Positions 1 to 5,671 of a stretch of DNA of 5,671 nt are shown here, in pieces; within the stretch, counting starts at the first letter, position 1; each line of letters begins with the position of its first letter. The notes under the pieces were generated by a model. The model searched no databases. It saw only the letters and a program-made list of their open reading frames with translations, and had not been told where the DNA came from. Source of the stretch: a virus; the IMG/VR virus record IMGVR_UViG_3300012973_000440, positions 1 to 5,671 of that record; one strand, 5' to 3'. The position numbers and the translations under genes are program-made.

Positions 1-1527
1 AACTTCATCAATATAATATCTAACTGGTGTGCCATAGGTTGCGGCGACATATAAGATATTATACTCTGAAGCCAAATCATCATATTTGATAATAGCGGTA
101 GAGCTCGCTCCATCAATAATACCGTCTTCATAATACTCTGGTTTATAAGCATTTAGACTCAAAATATCTCGTAATCTTGTTCCACCAATTACATCAGATT
201 CACTTACAGTAATAAGAGTTGTAGCAATCGTGGAATAAGCAGAAGATAACTCTTGTTTATATCTTACGATAATGTTTTTGGTGCGAACCGCTTGAATCTC
301 TTCATAAACAATCATAATAGGAGCTGCTTGAGTTAAAGCATCAAGGCTAACTTCACCGTTGTAAGAGAAGTCTTCATCAAACTGATATCCTTCTGGTCTG
401 TGTGCCGCGATAGGAATAATATCGCTCAATAGAGGATTGTTCATAAACATTAAAGCATTAATATTAACTGTTTCTACTATTGGTTCAGTATTTAAATCTA
501 CAGTGTAATAATGAACAGTAATTGGATACTCAATAGGAGTATAATAAACTTGTAAAACGCCTTGGTTTAATACATCATCATAAGTTTGAAGACTAGACTC
601 ATTATAAAGTTTTCCATCTTCATAAGGAGCTGTGTGATACTTATTAAAATCAATGTTTAAATCAGTAAGAACATTAAAAGCTTCATTAAAACGCTCTTGA
701 TATTTAACCTGGATAGTAGCAGTGGTTAAGCGATACCAATCCGGATAAATACCCGCGTAATATTCTACAAATAAAGTATTAGTGGCTCTGGTGTAAATAA
801 CGCTATAAGCTACTTCCAAAGTGTCGTATGTGATTAATTCATCAGCATTATGGTCTTCAATATAACCAGAATTATAATAAGCCGGTGCTGGACGATAACC
901 TTCTACACTAATAATGTCTCCAAGTTTAGAGCCATCATATAAAGAAGCCTCAGTAACATTGACATACATTGAATTAATAGTTTCAAAAGAACCATCATCT
1001 TTTTCCACTTTGTAAGCTACTAAAACGTTTTTACTGCGGTCCACTTCAATCTTTTCATAGAAAACTGAAATAGGAGAGGCCGCAAGCAGATTTTCAAGAG
1101 TTACTTGTTTATCAAAATTAACTCTTGCTTTATATCCGACAGGGCGATAAGATTGAACATCTACTAATTGTCCAACTGTTTGATATTTTGCTAATTGTGG
1201 TTGTGTAAATGAAACTGTGCGAATTAACATCTCATTAAATATACCGGCACCATTGTCTAAATAATAATTAACCGTAATATTATATGACATTGGAGTATAA
1301 TTAATATTTAAAACCTAAATAGATTGTAAATTCTCATATGTTAATTCTAAATCTCCTAAATTAGTTACAACTCCAGGATTGTAATAATCAGGACGTAATC
1401 TATCAACATCAACGCCCAAATCATTAAATGTAATATTGTCTTTATCGAACATTGAAGCTCGGATAGGCACTGTTACAATTTCAATTAATGAAGTGGTGTC
1501 TTTATAATAGGCTACAGTTAGTTTAAA
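1..1527 (-). repeat. Diverged tandem protein-level repeats (period 81-84 aa) inside the Dit-like gene, with a higher-order ~250-aa three-repeat unit present twice
   Basis: Repeat starts on the minus strand are near 1527, 1284, 1032, 780, 528, 279 and 30. Each repeat opens with a x-V-x-Y-(Y/K) strand (LTVAYY, ITVNYY, VLVAYK, LFVEYY, ITVHYY, IIVRYK, PVRYY). Most contain a (Y/H)-(R/K)-P-x-(G/Y)-Y motif, and each ends in a h-x-V-x-Y strand. Repeats 2-3-4 pair with 5-6-7. For example, KNVLVAYK...GSKLGDIISVEGYRPAPAYY...ITYDTL matches KNIIVRYK...GTRLRDILSLNAYKPEYY...IKYDDL, and LLAASPISVFYEKIEVDRS matches LTQAAPIMIVYEEIQAVRT. Confidence 0.65.
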
Positions 1528-1929
1528 GGCGTTAGTCATATTTGCGTTTGTAGTATAAATTTCACGCTGTCCTTTGGCATAACCACTAGACAAAGTATAT
1601 GATACTACAAAATTACCATTTTTTAACCGAGTTGGCTCTCCTGTGTCAACAATATTAACATCAAAAAAGAAATTTAAATCATCGAATTTAATGGTCGCTT
1701 TTTTAAGCATAGCGGTTAAGCGGCTTATACGTTTAAAAGCCTCTTCCTCGTCCTAGCAAAGCACTAAAAATTCTAATTTAATCTTTTTAAAGCGGTCTTG
1801 CTGACGAATAAAAGTAGGCTGAATGTCTCCATCCAACCACTCTTGGGCCGTGTCTATATCATTACTATATAATACGCGGTCGAAAAGCTAAATGCCAAGA
1901 GTATCTAATTCAATACCGTTTATTAACAT
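1..1929 (-). CDS. Distal tail protein (Dit)-like N-terminal domain fused to tandem ~83-aa MucBP/Ig-like adhesin repeats (probable baseplate adhesin or receptor-binding protein); 3'-partial; needs TAG read as sense
   Basis: ATG 1929-1927 lies 6 nt downstream of AAGGAGG (plus-strand 1936-1942). Hand translation of the minus strand is open for all 643 codons to the window edge, apart from three TAGs (1888-1890, 1753-1755, 1315-1317). The N-terminus MLINGIELDTLGI[TAG]LFDRV...DRFKKIKLEFLVLC[TAG]DEEEAFKRISRLTAMLKKATIKFDDLNFFFDV fits the siphovirus Dit (Sipho_tail) N-domain pattern from memory. Track ORF 1315..1710 is an internal fragment. ATG 1710 and ATG 1290 have no Shine-Dalgarno (SD) site. Confidence 0.7.
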
Positions 1930-1931
1930 TT

Positions 1932-2099
1932 TTAGCCTCCTTGTCTTTGAATTTCAAGTTCGATTTTATTTAATAGAATCGAAGTTGTGTCTTCTTTTGG
2001 AGTAGATGTTTGAGTCATTTTAGCCTATTTGTTTGCGGCTTCTTGTGCGGCCGCACTTAGTTGATTAGATAAAGTATCTAACAATTCTTCATAGTTCAT
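1932..2099 (-). CDS. Small (55 aa) probably helical protein of unknown function, in the position normally held by the tape measure gene
   Basis: ATG 2099-2097 with GGAGG at 2109-2113 (9-nt spacer); it overlaps the upstream TGA as ATGA. TAA at 1934-1932. One in-frame TAG (2025-2027). Sequence: MNYEELLDTLSNQLSAAAQEAANK[TAG]AKMTQTSTPKEDTTSILLNKIELEIQRQGG. No family recognised. Confidence 0.55.
1936..1942 (-). promoter_or_regulatory. Shine-Dalgarno site AAGGAGG for the Dit-like gene
   Basis: Plus-strand CCTCCTT, 6 nt upstream of ATG 1929. Confidence 0.7.
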
Positions 2100-2590
2100 T
2101 CGGTCAAACCTCCAATTTTTAAATTTTCAAAAGTTTGGTTACGTTCTTCAAGATTGCCTATTGTATACCCCAAATCTTTTGTTAGACGAATTAACTAGTC
2201 ATTATCACTACTTACTATAGCTATTTTTACTAAATTTGCTTCGGTTTCTTTTTTCCGAAGATAATTATTGTAAGCCCTCTTAATTTCTTGAGGAGTCATA
2301 GTCATACATTCTGTTGGTGACACGCCTATTTCTCCAACAGCCATAGAATATAACTCTTCAAGCTCTAATAAAGAGGGTGCCTCAGATGGCACCGAAAACA
2401 TTGTTAAATCATTGTTTTCAATAATTTCTTGAATGTCTTCGAATGTCACCCAAGGCTATAAGCTAATTAAAGCACAATATAGATGAAATGCTAAATTATT
2501 CTCTACATTATTTGATTTTTCGTGTAATAGGATTAACCCTTTTAGACCAAATTTGGTCTAAAAAATTTGTTTTTTAGTTTTAAAAATCAT
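2096..2590 (-). CDS. Tail assembly chaperone-like protein (gpG-like N-terminal part plus a possible gpT-like part in the same frame), 164 aa
   Basis: ATG 2590-2588 has only a weak purine-rich SD and overlaps the end of the major tail gene by 11 nt. TGA at 2098-2096. Three in-frame TAGs (2558-2560, 2456-2458, 2195-2197). Sequence: MIFKTKKQIF[TAG]TKFGLKGLILLHEKSNNVENNLAFHLYCALISL[TAG]PWVTFEDIQ...SSDND[TAG]LIRLTKDLGYTIGNLEERNQTFENLKIGGLTE. Its position directly after the major tail gene and the F-G-L-K-x-L-x-x-L / Y-x-A-L pattern are typical of siphovirus chaperones (from memory). Track ORF 2195..2449 (GTG start, no SD) is the middle fragment. Confidence 0.55.
2109..2113 (-). promoter_or_regulatory. 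Shine-Dalgarno site GGAGG for the 55-aa ORF
   Basis: Plus-strand CCTCC, 9 nt upstream of ATG 2099. Confidence 0.65.
2540..2563. repeat. Perfect 24-nt palindrome (potential 10-bp stem with 4-nt loop) at the major tail / chaperone gene junction
   Basis: TTTTAGACCAAATTTGGTCTAAAA is its own reverse complement; every pair 2540/2563 through 2551/2552 was checked. It starts 17 nt downstream (mRNA sense) of the major tail gene stop, lies inside chaperone codons 10-17, and includes that gene's first TAG (2558-2560). Its function is unknown. Confidence 0.5.
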
Positions 2591-2987
2591 TGTAACGTTC
2601 TTTCTCTAGGGGGCCGGTGCCCAATAGCTTAAGATTATATTTAAATTCTTTATTAAATATAGCAGAGGTAGGGAAGTCTACCAATAGAGCAGAACCATTA
2701 TAAGTATTTGAACCAATAGTAAAGGAAACTTTCACAGTTTTATTTTCCATAAAACAATCTTCTAAGGTTTGTAATGCGTCATCGTCAATAACATATAAGC
2801 CTTGGCAAGTAATATTCCAAGTTTTTATACCTGATAGACTTTCGCCCCAGTCTCCATTAATTCTGTTGGTAATATCTATAATTTGAGCTTTTCGTTCTAA
2901 TACAGCTCCTTGTTGACCACCCAGAGGTTTTCCGTCAATGGAAATGATAACATCAATACTTTTTACTAAATTATTGAACTATGTCAT
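2580..2987 (-). CDS. Major tail protein, TP901-1/phi13-like family, 135 aa
   Basis: ATG 2987-2985 with AAGGAGGT at 2996-3003 (8-nt spacer). TAA at 2582-2580. TAG is codon 3 (2979-2981). Verified codon by codon: MT[TAG]FNNLVKSIDVIISIDGKPLGGQQGAVLERKAQIIDITNRINGDWGESLSGIKTWNITCQGLYVIDDDALQTLEDCFMENKTVKVSFTIGSNTYNGSALLVDFPTSAIFNKEFKYNLKLLGTGPLEKERYNDF. The layout G-G-Q-x-x-x-x-L...ID-x-T...W-x-E...G-x-K-(S/T)-W...Y-x-G-x-A...L-x-G-T-G-x-L matches that family from memory. The gene is missing from the standard-code track because of the codon-3 TAG. Confidence 0.8.
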
Positions 2988-3378
2988 CTTCGTTTACCTC
3001 CTTTTGGCTTTGTCCTAGAAGAAAATCGAATACAACTACGCCGTGTTTTTTTACTGGTCCAGTCGACCTATCATCTAAAATTTTAAAGGTCTTTTGATAC
3101 GCATAAAGTAATTCTGGCATATCCGCAACTAAACTTTGTAAATTATTATTTATATCCTCTACAATATCTATGATTTCTAATTCACCATTATAAGTAGAAA
3201 ATATATCTAGTGTTAAACTCACAGCATCGACCTTTAAATCGAAACTATTGAGTTTCGTCGCATTACCTAAACGAAGCATTAACCAAGGAAATTTCTCATT
3301 GTATGTTCCATTATCGGTAATGTTATATTCTAAATCTTTTATTAAAGAATAAAAGCGTTCTTTAATTTTTTTAATCAT
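2971..3378 (-). CDS. Tail terminator / tail completion-like protein, 135 aa
   Basis: Track ORF. ATG 3378-3376 with AAGGAGAG at 3384-3391 (5-nt spacer). TAA at 2973-2971. No TAG. It overlaps the major tail gene start by 17 nt. The call rests on size, position immediately upstream of the major tail gene, and alternating beta-strand-like segments (FPWLMLRLG, VSLTLDIFS, HGVVVFDFLL). It is based on position and pattern only. Confidence 0.5.
   Translation of the reverse strand: MIKKIKERFYSLIKDLEYNITDNGTYNEKFPWLMLRLGNATKLNSFDLKVDAVSLTLDIFSTYNGELEIIDIVEDINNNLQSLVADMPELLYAYQKTFKILDDRSTGPVKKHGVVVFDFLLGQSQKEVNEDDIVQ
2996..3003 (-). promoter_or_regulatory. Shine-Dalgarno site AAGGAGGT for the major tail protein gene
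   Basis: Plus-strand ACCTCCTT, 8 nt upstream of ATG 2987. Confidence 0.75.
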
Positions 3379-3380
3379 TT

Positions 3381-3584
3381 TTACTCTCCTTTCGGAGCAG
3401 GAACTAAAGTATAGGCTTCAATTGTGTCTCGTTTAGTTAGAAATAAAAACTTCACATAAAGATGGTCCTAAACTTGAATTTCTTGCCCGTTTTCATCGGT
3501 TTGAGTAATATAATGAGGAATTGCCCAATCATATACATAACCGGCAGGTGCCTCATATTTAGTCATTCTATTTGAAAAGGCCAT
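3381..3584 (-). CDS. Hypothetical protein, 67 aa
   Basis: ATG 3584-3582 with GGAGGA at 3591-3596 (6-nt spacer). TAA at 3383-3381. One in-frame TAG (3468-3470). Sequence: MAFSNRMTKYEAPAGYVYDWAIPHYITQTDENGQEIQV[TAG]DHLYVKFLFLTKRDTIEAYTLVPAPKGE. No family recognised. Absent from the standard-code track. Confidence 0.6.
3384..3391 (-). promoter_or_regulatory. Shine-Dalgarno site AAGGAGAG for the tail-terminator-like gene
   Basis: Plus-strand CTCTCCTT, 5 nt upstream of ATG 3378. Confidence 0.65.
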
Positions 3585-3590
3585 TTCGGT

Positions 3591-3596
3591 TCCTCC
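3591..3596 (-). promoter_or_regulatory. Shine-Dalgarno site GGAGGA for the 67-aa ORF
   Basis: Plus-strand TCCTCC, 6 nt upstream of ATG 3584. Confidence 0.7.
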
Positions 3597-4211
3597 TTAA
3601 GTTATAATAATATCTGGGACATAGGGCACACCGTGGCCCCCGCCGCCCCTAAGACCACCACTTCCACTTCGGAAATCGTGTCCTGTAATAGCTTGAATAA
3701 AAGTCACAATAAGAGCAACAACGATTGCCGCCAATATCATTCCAACGAAACCGGCCAAGCCACCGCCTCGTCCGAAGCCTAAACCAGGGCCTTGCCCTCG
3801 TCCGCCTCGCTCCATTGCCATACGCTATTCTTCTTCCTCGGCTTCAAGAAGCATTTCTTCCTCGGCTTGAGCTTCATCCACAGCCTAATCCCATAAAGGT
3901 GCGGCCGCCGCTAATGCCGCCGCAATGGCTGGCTCAAAGTAGGGCTAAGAAGGACAGCACCAAGTGCCATACTCTACATATTGAGCATATTCGCAAATGG
4001 TTTCAGCACGACAGCTGGTCTCATCACAGTCAGCTTCCAAGGTAGAACGGAGATAGCCTGTGTCTACTGGCACAAGCTATCTCGATACCTCTAAAAAAGT
4101 TTCTACAAAAGCTTGACAGCCTAAGCTATAATCAGGATAAATATTATATTCTTCTGTGGAATCAATATAGCCAAAATCATCGACGACATCAAATTCACAC
4201 AAAAGTCCCAT
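3597..4211 (-). CDS. HK97 gp10-family neck/tail-completion protein with an acidic linker and a Gly/Arg-rich transmembrane C-terminal extension, 204 aa
   Basis: ATG 4211-4209 (TAATG overlap with the upstream stop; AAGGAG at 4223-4228). TAA at 3599-3597. Four in-frame TAGs (4077-4079, 3945-3947, 3885-3887, 3825-3827). The segment ...FLEVSR[TAG]LVPVDTGYLRSTLEADCDETSCRAETICEYAQYVEYGTWCCPS[TAG]PYFEPAIAAA... carries the P-V-D-T-G-x-L-R-x-S ... Y-A-x-Y-V-E-(F/Y)-G-T ... P-(F/Y)-x-x-P-A signature of the HK97 gp10 family (PF04883/TIGR01725, from memory). The C-terminal 74 aa equal track ORF 3597..3821. Confidence 0.75.
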
Positions 4212-4453
4212 TATTTATGATACTCCTTCAGTTCGTGTATTTCATTTTCAATATTTTCTATGTGTTCTTCTACAACACTTTCTTTGCGTTCAAGCTCATA
4301 AGTTCTTTCAATTAGATTATTGTGTTTATTTACTTTTTGCTCTAATTGTTCTAATCGATAATTAATTAATTTGCTTGAGGCGATTACGCCAATGGCAGAA
4401 CCAATAATAGTTCCAAGAAATCCAATTAGGGCAATTATAATACCTTCTGTCAT
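4211..4453 (-). CDS. Small membrane-anchored coiled-coil protein, 80 aa, function unknown
   Basis: Track ORF. ATG 4453-4451 with AAGGAGGT at 4463-4470 (9-nt spacer). TAA at 4213-4211. No TAG. An N-terminal hydrophobic helix (GIIIALIGFLGTIIGSAIGVIASS) is followed by a charged heptad-like segment (LEQLEQKVNKHNNLIERTYELERKESVVEEHIENIENEIHELKEY). Confidence 0.7.
   Translation of the reverse strand: MTEGIIIALIGFLGTIIGSAIGVIASSKLINYRLEQLEQKVNKHNNLIERTYELERKESVVEEHIENIENEIHELKEYHK
4223..4228 (-). promoter_or_regulatory. Shine-Dalgarno site AAGGAG for the HK97 gp10-like gene
   Basis: Plus-strand CTCCTT, 11 nt upstream of ATG 4211. Confidence 0.55.
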
Positions 4454-4462
4454 TTTTGCTTT

Positions 4463-4470
4463 ACCTCCTT
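4463..4470 (-). promoter_or_regulatory. Shine-Dalgarno site AAGGAGGT for the membrane coiled-coil gene
   Basis: Plus-strand ACCTCCTT, 9 nt upstream of ATG 4453; it overlaps the upstream TAA stop. Confidence 0.75.
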
Positions 4471-4999
4471 ATCCAGCTATATAGATGAAGACGCCATTTG
4501 GGCCTACCTAATAATTACTTTTACCAGTAACGGTAATCGTTTTTGCTTCAGTATCGACCACATATGTTACTGATGGACTTAGGTCTCCAAATACGCTTCC
4601 GTCAGAATATCCAGTTAAGTTTTTTAATCCACTACTAATCGAATTACTGCCGTATTTTCTGGTCTATGCCGCTCCTTTAGAAGAATCTAATAGAGGAGAA
4701 AAAGTATAATAATCAGATTTTCCAGCGGTTGTTGACGTAGAATTATAACTTCCTGCTAAAAATAACATCCAATTCGCTTTCTATACATCAGATATATAAG
4801 AAGATACGTCAAATGTATAGGTATAAGCTCCATTGGCCGTGCCTGTAATAGCAGCCCAATTTAATTCACCACCAGAAGGTAGATTAGTAATAGCTGTTGC
4901 CATATCCAAAGGGCCAAGTAAATCTGTAGTTCCATTTTTTTCTCGAATTGCGTTGCCAATAGATGACAATGTGCTTTCTTCTATAAATACTTTACTCAT
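4469..4999 (-). CDS. Fiber-like structural protein, 176 aa
   Basis: ATG 4999-4997 (TAATG overlap with the upstream stop; GAGGAGGG at 5009-5016). TAA at 4471-4469. Three in-frame TAGs (4781-4783, 4664-4666, 4508-4510). The N-terminus ESTLSSIGNAIREKNGTTDLLGPLDMATAITNL resembles the L-x-x-I-(A/G)-x-A-I-R-x-K-x-G ... M-A-x-x-I motif that I recall at the N-termini of phage fiber or receptor-binding-type proteins. The C-terminal part is rich in Ser, Thr, Gly and Tyr. Track ORF 4781..4999 is the N-terminal fragment. Confidence 0.6.
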
Positions 5000-5671
5000 T
5001 AGTATTGACCCTCCTCTGCGTTAGGATAGGTAGATAAAGCCGCAGTAATTAACGCGTTCACCTAATCTGCGGTTTGATACCCTTTATTATCAATTTCATT
5101 TTTTGTATAATAATTTGATAAATTAACACGAGTAGAACCAACTTGTTCAAAGCTACCATTTATATACAGATATTCATCATAATAATCCATAAAATTACTA
5201 CTATTATTTACTGGAAGCAAATAAATAGTATTGGAATTAGCTGCTTCTCCTGGTAGATTCTAAACAATTTCAACATTAAAACCAGGAGGTAGAGAGGCTA
5301 ACACCTCTAAAACAATTTCCGTCTTGTCGGCGTCTGTCCAGTAATCCGTTCCTCGAACAGGAGTATAACCGTTAGGGCCGGCCGGACCCTACACCCCTTC
5401 TTCCCCTCGAGGGCCAATCGGTCCCTATGGACCTACTTCTCCCTGAATGCCTTGTGGACCTTGGGGACCCGTATCACCCTTGGGCCCTTCAGGTCCAATG
5501 GGACCTTGAGGGCCTATATCTCCTTTAATACCTTGCTCGCCTTGAGGACCTTGAGGTCCAGTTAAACCAGTTTCTCCCTTAGGGCCAGCCGGACCTTGAG
5601 GACCTTGCTCACCAATCGGGCCTTGGGGCCCTTCAGGACCCACTAAAGCCGCGATATCAACCCAAGGGGAA
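4999..5671 (-). CDS. Collagen-like triple-helix repeat fiber protein; 5'-partial (start lies beyond the window)
   Basis: The frame is open from the window edge to TAA 5001-4999, apart from four TAGs (5425-5427, 5389-5391, 5260-5262, 5062-5064). It has 30 uninterrupted Gly-X-Y triplets, followed by [20 protein letters not shown]... and ...[34 protein letters not shown]..., a non-collagenous C-terminal part typical of phage collagen-like fibers (from memory). The track's GTG start at 5643 is internal; the frame continues upstream as [13 protein letters not shown]. Confidence 0.85.
5009..5016 (-). promoter_or_regulatory. Shine-Dalgarno site GAGGAGGG for the fiber-like gene
   Basis: Plus-strand CCCTCCTC, 9 nt upstream of ATG 4999. 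Confidence 0.7.
5368..5640 (-). repeat. Collagen Gly-X-Y tract, 30 consecutive triplets plus a closing Gly
   Basis: [71 protein letters not shown][TAG] [11 protein letters not shown][TAG] GPA GPN G. The periodicity is unbroken only if both TAGs are translated. Confidence 0.9.

Follow-up and report, generated by a model that had tools for sequence, protein, structure and literature searches.

Code-15 recoded bacteriophages were reportedly described by Ivanova in 2014. Phages that read TAG as glutamine under this code are known among the crAss-like phages, the Lak phages and other gut phage clades (Borges 2022, preprint 10.1101/2021.08.26.457843; PMC9523058), and in crAss-like phages the reassignment has been validated by proteomics (Peters 2022, PMC9523058). 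An amber suppressor is detectable in only 40% of TAG-recoded phages according to one survey (10.1101/2021.08.26.457843) and in 52% according to another (PMC11210395). In amber suppression of the E. coli supE type, a tRNA-Gln with the anticodon CUA is charged by GlnRS (PMC12636597).

Here we compare these systems with the window, by which we mean the whole stretch of viral DNA analysed, 5,671 bases long and with a G+C content of 36%. Like the code-15 phages, the window has in-frame TAGs in structural genes, a TAG that aligns with glutamine, and TAA and TGA kept as stops; like them, too, its phage has a low G+C content (36% here) and close standard-code relatives that rarely use TAG as a stop. 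It differs from them in that the genome is very small (~25 kb) and made up almost entirely of virion genes, and in that TAG is spread across nearly all genes, the terminase included, rather than being confined to a distinct late block. The phage has no suppressor tRNA, as is the case for about half of the known code-15 phages, in which none is detectable. Suppression of the supE type, in which a CUA tRNA accepted by GlnRS places glutamine at UAG, is the presumed mechanism here, although, in contrast to that system, no such tRNA gene is found in the window phage. What we describe is ordinary code-15 recoding in a new, small (~25 kb), tRNA-less phage lineage.

The gene block and its relatives

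When TAG is read as a sense codon, the window resolves into ten contiguous open reading frames, and every recognisable gene lies on the minus strand. It comes from the block of late (virion) genes of a tailed phage whose genome measures ~25 kb. The genes are:

4999..5670, minus strand: collagen-like tail-fibre protein, C-terminal 223 codons; four in-frame TAGs, TAA stop; the frame leaves the window end
4469..4999, minus strand: g2, 176 aa; TAGs at 4781-4783, 4664-4666 and 4508-4510
4211..4453, minus strand: g3, 80-aa membrane/coiled-coil protein, XhlA-like below the Pfam threshold; no TAG
3597..4211, minus strand: gp10-like protein (the label is that of the earlier note), 204 aa; four TAGs
3381..3584, minus strand: g5, 67 aa; TAG at 3468-3470 (residue 39)
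2971..3378, minus strand: g6, tail terminator or tail-completion protein (PHROG 176, E=5.3e-9); no TAG
2580..2987, minus strand: major tail (tube) protein (Pfam Phage_tail_2, E=5.1e-13); TAG at 2979-2981 (residue 3)
2096..2590, minus strand: g8, 164 aa, placed as a tail assembly chaperone would be; TAGs at 2558-2560, 2456-2458 and 2195-2197
1932..2099, minus strand: g9, 55 aa, in a tail chaperone position; TAG at 2025-2027
1..1929, minus strand: giant protein, N-terminal 643 codons; TAGs at 1888-1890, 1753-1755 and 1315-1317

The collagen-like frame matches Pfam PF01391 (E=5.7e-15) and PHROG tail-fibre families with E-values down to 1.9e-35, g6 has an additional gp17-like Pfam match that lies below threshold, and g2 matches no family in Pfam or PHROG. 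Two names given to genes in the earlier note were not confirmed by family profiles. The frame at 1-1929 had been called Dit-like; its N-terminus has no match in Pfam, PHROG or NCBIfam, and the relatives show that it is the start of a protein of ~3,000 aa, with a separate SPP1_Dit protein encoded downstream. Gene calls in the relatives give the giant protein a length of 2,930 to 3,078 aa, and it has no Pfam match. It consists of repeated beta-rich modules and sits in the tape-measure slot (L004 from 12280; L222 and L223, 1-6265; L076, 2-4657); in L224, a relative with a similar terminase, the same slot is occupied by a normal tape-measure gene. Downstream of the giant gene the relatives encode a small protein of 116-133 aa with the SPP1_Dit C-terminal domain and then a Prophage_tail protein.

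The frame at 3597-4211 had been assigned to the HK97 gp10-like proteins, and here no Pfam-A or NCBIfam match was obtained even at E≤5. The protein has no sequence relative in the PDB, and a structure search of the PDB with its AlphaFold model (pLDDT 76) gave nothing useful; in BFVD the model finds weak matches to entries named 'putative tail component' (E 3e-3 to 7e-3), while entries labelled HK97 gp10 do no better than E about 0.2. Position and modelled fold may be compatible with the HK97 gp10 family, of which the protein is at most a putative member. In the C-terminal half of the protein (3597-3830) an acidic helix is succeeded by a stretch rich in Gly and Arg, then by a hydrophobic helix predicted at residues 152-175, and last by a conserved P-D-I-I-I-T end, a layout that is unusual for a head-tail joining protein.

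Our first scans of IMG/VR, other metagenome collections, ENA and Logan returned 74 related loci (58 non-redundant), to which later scans added loci from terminase searches and contig look-ups. Contigs of the family cluster at 24-27 kb and share a conserved gene order: small and large terminase, portal, capsid, connectors, collagen fibre genes, the gp10-like gene, tail terminator, tail tube, two small genes, the giant gene, the small Dit-domain protein, a Tal-like protein and ~3 kb of small genes. Two of the loci (L029, L005) are 94% identical to the window at the DNA level over positions 1-4454. From ~4455 to 5671, the part that holds g2 and the collagen protein, this identity collapses. The fibre module is mosaic, and the pattern, as seen in the alignments, looks like mosaic exchange of receptor-binding genes. 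With megablast, no deposited phage genome matched the window. Among species-representative genomes, a profile of the gp10-like protein found no prophage relative, and the terminase found only relatives at 47-48%, in Amphibacillus and Bacillus (Bacillota).

In a distance (neighbour-joining) tree the recoded genomes form two clades, with standard-code members near each, and the window lies deep in the clade that we refer to as Gln-type. Standard-code members without any in-frame TAG are L006, L008/L076, L036, L043, L012, L013, L149, L220 and L221, and in these TAG is rare as a stop. We observed that L006 and L008/L076 fall within the Gln-type clade, an arrangement that implies that recoding was gained or lost more than once. 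The standard-code L076 carries a tyrosine integrase gene at 6360-7253; in the corresponding region of L080, which is recoded, no integrase-sized frame is apparent in the list of open reading frames.

TAG is a sense codon in the window

Our recount of the window agrees with the 20 in-frame TAGs reported earlier, which are found in eight of the ten frames. The stops inside the window are eight TAA and one TGA, with no TAG, and TAG makes up 20 of the 83 presumed glutamine codons. Since the frames stay unbroken only when TAG is translated, it is a sense codon in the window. The sole TGA stop is that of g8, which overlaps the ATG of g9 (ATGA, 2096-2099); since g8 ends in TGA, this codon still acts as a terminator here. 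The recoded relatives likewise terminate with TAA and TGA only. Relatives at 86-92% protein identity carry the same TAGs, their orthologues are full-length when TAG is read through, and the genes behind the database entries for proteins of such relatives fail to give the deposited protein under the standard table.

The amino acid assigned to TAG

The earlier note had argued that the periodicity of the collagen-like tract identifies the residue encoded by TAG as glutamine. The tract runs on the minus strand from 5640 down to 5371 and comprises 30 Gly-X-Y triplets (GPE...GPN), or 31, to 5362, if GYT is counted; the boundary of 5368 given earlier falls one codon past the 30th triplet, an immaterial difference, and the tract itself is as described. 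Ten of the 28 triplets free of TAG do carry glutamine at Y (7 GPQ, 2 GEQ, 1 GIQ), and both TAGs of the tract are in frame at Y. If X and Y are equally likely, however, the chance that two TAGs both fall at Y is 0.25, so their placement in the window alone is not significant. A position-and-neighbour model, estimated from all collagen tracts of the phage family with a flat prior, gives the two collagen TAGs of the window by themselves a posterior of ~0.34 for glutamine, 0.24 for serine and 0.19 for alanine. The argument is thus weak for this tract alone, and it works when pooled over the family. Across 50 distinct tracts of the phage family with 983 triplets, 300 of 309 glutamines (97%) are at Y and 123 of 139 glutamates (88%) are at X. 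Within the window's clade the collagen TAG is at Y in 43 of 43 instances, with none at X, and at this scale the placement is significant. The residues found at X beside it (P, I, E, V) match those beside glutamine, and the collagen likelihood favours glutamine by 26 nats over arginine and by 38 nats over lysine. In the collagen-like tail fibre, TAG would then supply the glutamine that is strongly preferred at the Y position.

The eight TAG sites of the collagen-like and gp10-like genes, with the sense-coded residues that they face in relatives, are:

5425..5427, minus strand (CTA on the plus strand): TAG, collagen residue 82, at Y in GP[TAG]; repeat alignments ambiguous
5389..5391, minus strand (CTA on the plus strand): TAG, collagen residue 94, at Y in GV[TAG]
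5260..5262, minus strand: TAG, collagen residue 137, in the C-terminal domain; partners Q3, S1, with FNTEIVQELP in standard-code L006
5062..5064, minus strand: TAG, collagen residue 203; CAG in L004, few other partners
4077..4079, minus strand: TAG, gp10-like residue 45; variable column (D9, T6, E4, Q4)
3945..3947, minus strand: TAG, gp10-like residue 89, just before P-Y-F-E-P-A; Q24, H1, R1
3885..3887, minus strand: TAG, gp10-like residue 109; E14, Q3 and others, alone favouring glutamate
3825..3827, minus strand: TAG, gp10-like residue 129; CAA in L004; A8, Q5 and others

The most informative site of the window is that at 3945..3947, where seven relatives also have TAG. A glutamine before P-Y-F-x-P-A had been predicted for this gene, and the column holds glutamine in 24 of 26 sense-coded homologues; in a separate comparison the count was 18 of 18. 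Elsewhere in the window, TAG faces glutamine in 6 of 10 sense partners in g5 (residue 39), in 6 of 9 at residue 45 of g8, and in a mixed column at residue 14 of the giant protein (Q9, K5, E2). L004 has CAA at the TAG of the major tail protein (residue 3), at that of g9 (2025-2027) and at residue 205 of the giant protein, a column that reads G7, Q4. Residue 132 of g8 is in an acidic column (D5, E5), and the sites in g2 have sparse partners (S3, Y1 at the first) and are uninformative. Only ~6 of the 20 sites lie in columns in which glutamine is the modal residue, and some columns are rich in glutamate or aspartate.

Database proteins were considered as evidence and rejected. A search with the gp10-like protein gave 399 matches, of which the closest, P0001 (92% identical) and P0002 (86%), show Q at the four gp10-like TAGs; their DNA has TAG at those sites, so that the deposited Q is itself a product of code-15 translation and its use would be circular. 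For this reason we turned to codon-checked DNA, and the residue was inferred from DNA loci only, reading directly the codon beneath each aligned residue. We aligned 21 gene families at the codon level. Each codon was taken in turn to have no assigned meaning, and the residues found opposite it were matched against substitution profiles derived from these alignments themselves. This self-calibrated decoder returned the right residue for 59 of 59 multi-codon sense-codon controls and called TAG as glutamine. For the 13 usable non-collagen sites of the window the posterior is 0.95 for glutamine. In 161 distinct TAG columns from the 13 genomes of the window's clade, glutamine leads glutamate by 32 nats and is called in 1000 of 1000 bootstraps, with the clade controls, CAA, CAG, GAA, GAG, AAA, TAT, TGG, TTA and TCT among them, decoded correctly. 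TAG sits where homologues have a glutamine encoded by CAA or CAG: among relatives at ≥70% amino-acid identity its partner is CAA in 43 and CAG in 28 of 153 cases (71 together), glutamate being next with 14, and each of the eight TAGs in the L004 terminase is opposite a glutamine in the standard-code L006 and L008.

Other ways of scoring were less discriminating. A plain Codetta-style product of profile emissions, applied to the window alone, decoded 55 of 61 controls and reached no decision on TAG (Q 0.46, E 0.37). Profile emissions taken over every family column with the codon decoded 28 of 61 controls, were biased towards abundant residues, and were discarded.

The glutamine reading comes chiefly from the codon-checked alignments with the DNA of related phages, a form of the alignment check proposed in the earlier note; the pooled collagen tracts support it, the window's own tract being insufficient. 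We are rather confident, from these comparative data, that TAG in the window most probably means glutamine and that the phage uses code 15, with TAA and TGA as terminators.

That TAG might instead encode another residue (lysine, serine, tyrosine, tryptophan, leucine or pyrrolysine), or be read ambiguously by near-cognate tRNAs, we regard as improbable. Several of the TAG columns are variable, and the search for a CUA tRNA that would fix the residue found none (see below). Lysine, however, is 38 nats worse than glutamine in the clade analysis, serine, tyrosine, tryptophan and leucine fall outside the best three (glutamine, glutamate, lysine), and serine trails glutamine by 87 nats in the pooled family analysis; these outcomes come from a decoder that places TAT, TGG, TTA, AAA and TCT correctly. 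Near-cognate readthrough of low efficiency is incompatible with genes that hold 4 to 13 TAGs each. As for pyrrolysine, no pyl genes were seen among the ten frames of the window with Pfam, PHROG or NCBIfam, the window holds no tRNA, and the TAG columns behave as glutamine.

Glutamate, which seems to be inserted at TAG in a sister clade of this family (see below), is a reading of the window's TAGs to which we give a slightly smaller chance still. It is the runner-up in the profile-emission, window and clade decoding, and two of the sites, gp10-like residue 109 and g8 residue 132, are in the acidic columns described above. Against this, its posterior from the window alone is 0.02, it falls short of glutamine by the 32 nats given for the clade, and in close relatives TAG faces glutamine 71 times and glutamate 14 times. 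Moreover, the collagen TAG of the window's clade is never at X, where 88% of glutamates are found, and in the neighbour-joining tree the window is nested well within the Gln-type clade. The notion that the TAGs are true stops, produced by gene decay, misassembly or occasional programmed readthrough, has nothing in its favour beyond the meaning of TAG in the standard table and can be practically dismissed, as all 20 are in frame within long reading frames that TAA and TGA do not interrupt, independent assemblies (L004, L005, L029) retain these frames, often with TAG at identical positions, the Gly-X-Y register continues across both collagen TAGs, and standard-code relatives have sense codons at the positions concerned.

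A sister clade and the source of the decoder

Decoding genome by genome divides the recoded phages into two sets, which coincide with the two clades of the distance tree. In the second, clade B (L014, L015, L017, L018, L019, L044, L045), 56 TAG columns decode as glutamate, by 10 nats over glutamine and in 1000 of 1000 bootstraps, with the controls decoded correctly. Among close relatives TAG faces GAA or GAG in 24 of 45 cases and glutamine in 6, a distribution of partners that differs from that of the window's clade at p=6e-10. The collagen tracts are likewise the opposite of those in the window's clade, with TAG at X 20 times and at Y once (p=1e-15). In the terminase of L019/L147, TAG occurs in three columns that hold glutamate in 37 of 37 homologues, and one of these columns belongs to the Walker-B motif, of which it is the second acidic position, CWFEEA becoming CWIE[TAG]A. 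In P-loop ATPases, glutamine at the Walker-B glutamate position abolishes hydrolysis. Three further genomes, fetched afterwards from other samples by a protein search followed by contig look-up, show the same tendency: TAG faces glutamate at 23 of 35 sites with a standard-code partner in L219 (19 of 24 in conserved context), at 6 of 9 in L222 and at 7 of 10 in L223. A terminase-pattern scan of IMG/VR for Glu-type genomes returned only standard-code members, exact patterns being unable to cross a TAG.

From these alignments, clade B apparently reads TAG as glutamate, a reading that would be undescribed before: the literature that we searched gave no account of TAG→Glu for phages or bacteria. 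Nuclear codes in which UAG means glutamate are those of peritrich ciliates (table 30) and Blastocrithidia (table 31). The meaning of the codon there is the same as that which we infer for clade B, not for the window; these codes, however, are eukaryotic and reassign UAA as well, whereas clade B consists of phages in which only TAG has changed and TAA is the main stop. We stress that the glutamate reading concerns the sister clade and not the window's own TAGs. If it holds for clade B, the meaning of TAG is not uniform in the family and is not transferable from distant relatives, and the code-15 translations of clade B proteins in databases (for example P0121 and P0122), which have Q wherever the DNA has TAG, are probably systematically wrong at the sites in question.

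A tRNA with anticodon CUA, whose identity elements the earlier note had hoped to inspect, was found neither in the window nor in its complete relatives. ARAGORN scans of the window and of 110 related loci detected no tRNA gene. Two complete genomes of the family were covered from end to end: IMGVR_UViG_3300001517_000005 (25,540 bp), which is Gln-type, by L011 and L080, and IMGVR_UViG_3300031994_000473 (26,023 bp), which is Glu-type, by L054 and L147. Neither had an Rfam match, at the gathering score or at E≤1, and ARAGORN gave no CUA-anticodon candidate at 80% thresholds, with introns allowed, or in mitochondrial mode. Neither the window nor the complete relatives encode any tRNA, and among the genes of the phage there is none for a suppressor tRNA, a release factor or a synthetase.

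Given that only 40-52% of TAG-recoded phages have a suppressor, the absence of a tRNA has precedent. Single genes of the family contain up to 13 TAGs, for which leaky readthrough would be insufficient. We propose that in the window's clade TAG would be decoded by an efficient amber-suppressor tRNA with the anticodon CUA, charged by glutaminyl-tRNA synthetase. As the phage has no tRNA gene, the decoder must come from outside its genome, and it may be supplied in trans by the host, by a resident element or by a co-infecting phage. On balance we lean towards the view that this family of ~25-kb phages has reassigned the amber codon at least twice, to glutamine in the window's clade and to glutamate in the sister clade, with no phage tRNA in either and the meaning supplied in trans.

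Translation table 15 is the right one for the window, so that its ten genes can be properly annotated. Code-15 translation of every TAG-recoded phage, in turn, can place glutamine on catalytic glutamates, and if the reading of the family with two meanings is true, gene callers that assume code 15 would mistranslate the Glu-type genomes. The window itself is of modest interest and the phage family of considerably more, for it holds together standard-code members, members in which TAG means glutamine and members in which it apparently means glutamate, all of them without tRNA genes. As such, the family offers a compact natural setting in which to ask how phages bring about the reading of a stop codon and what determines the amino acid inserted there.
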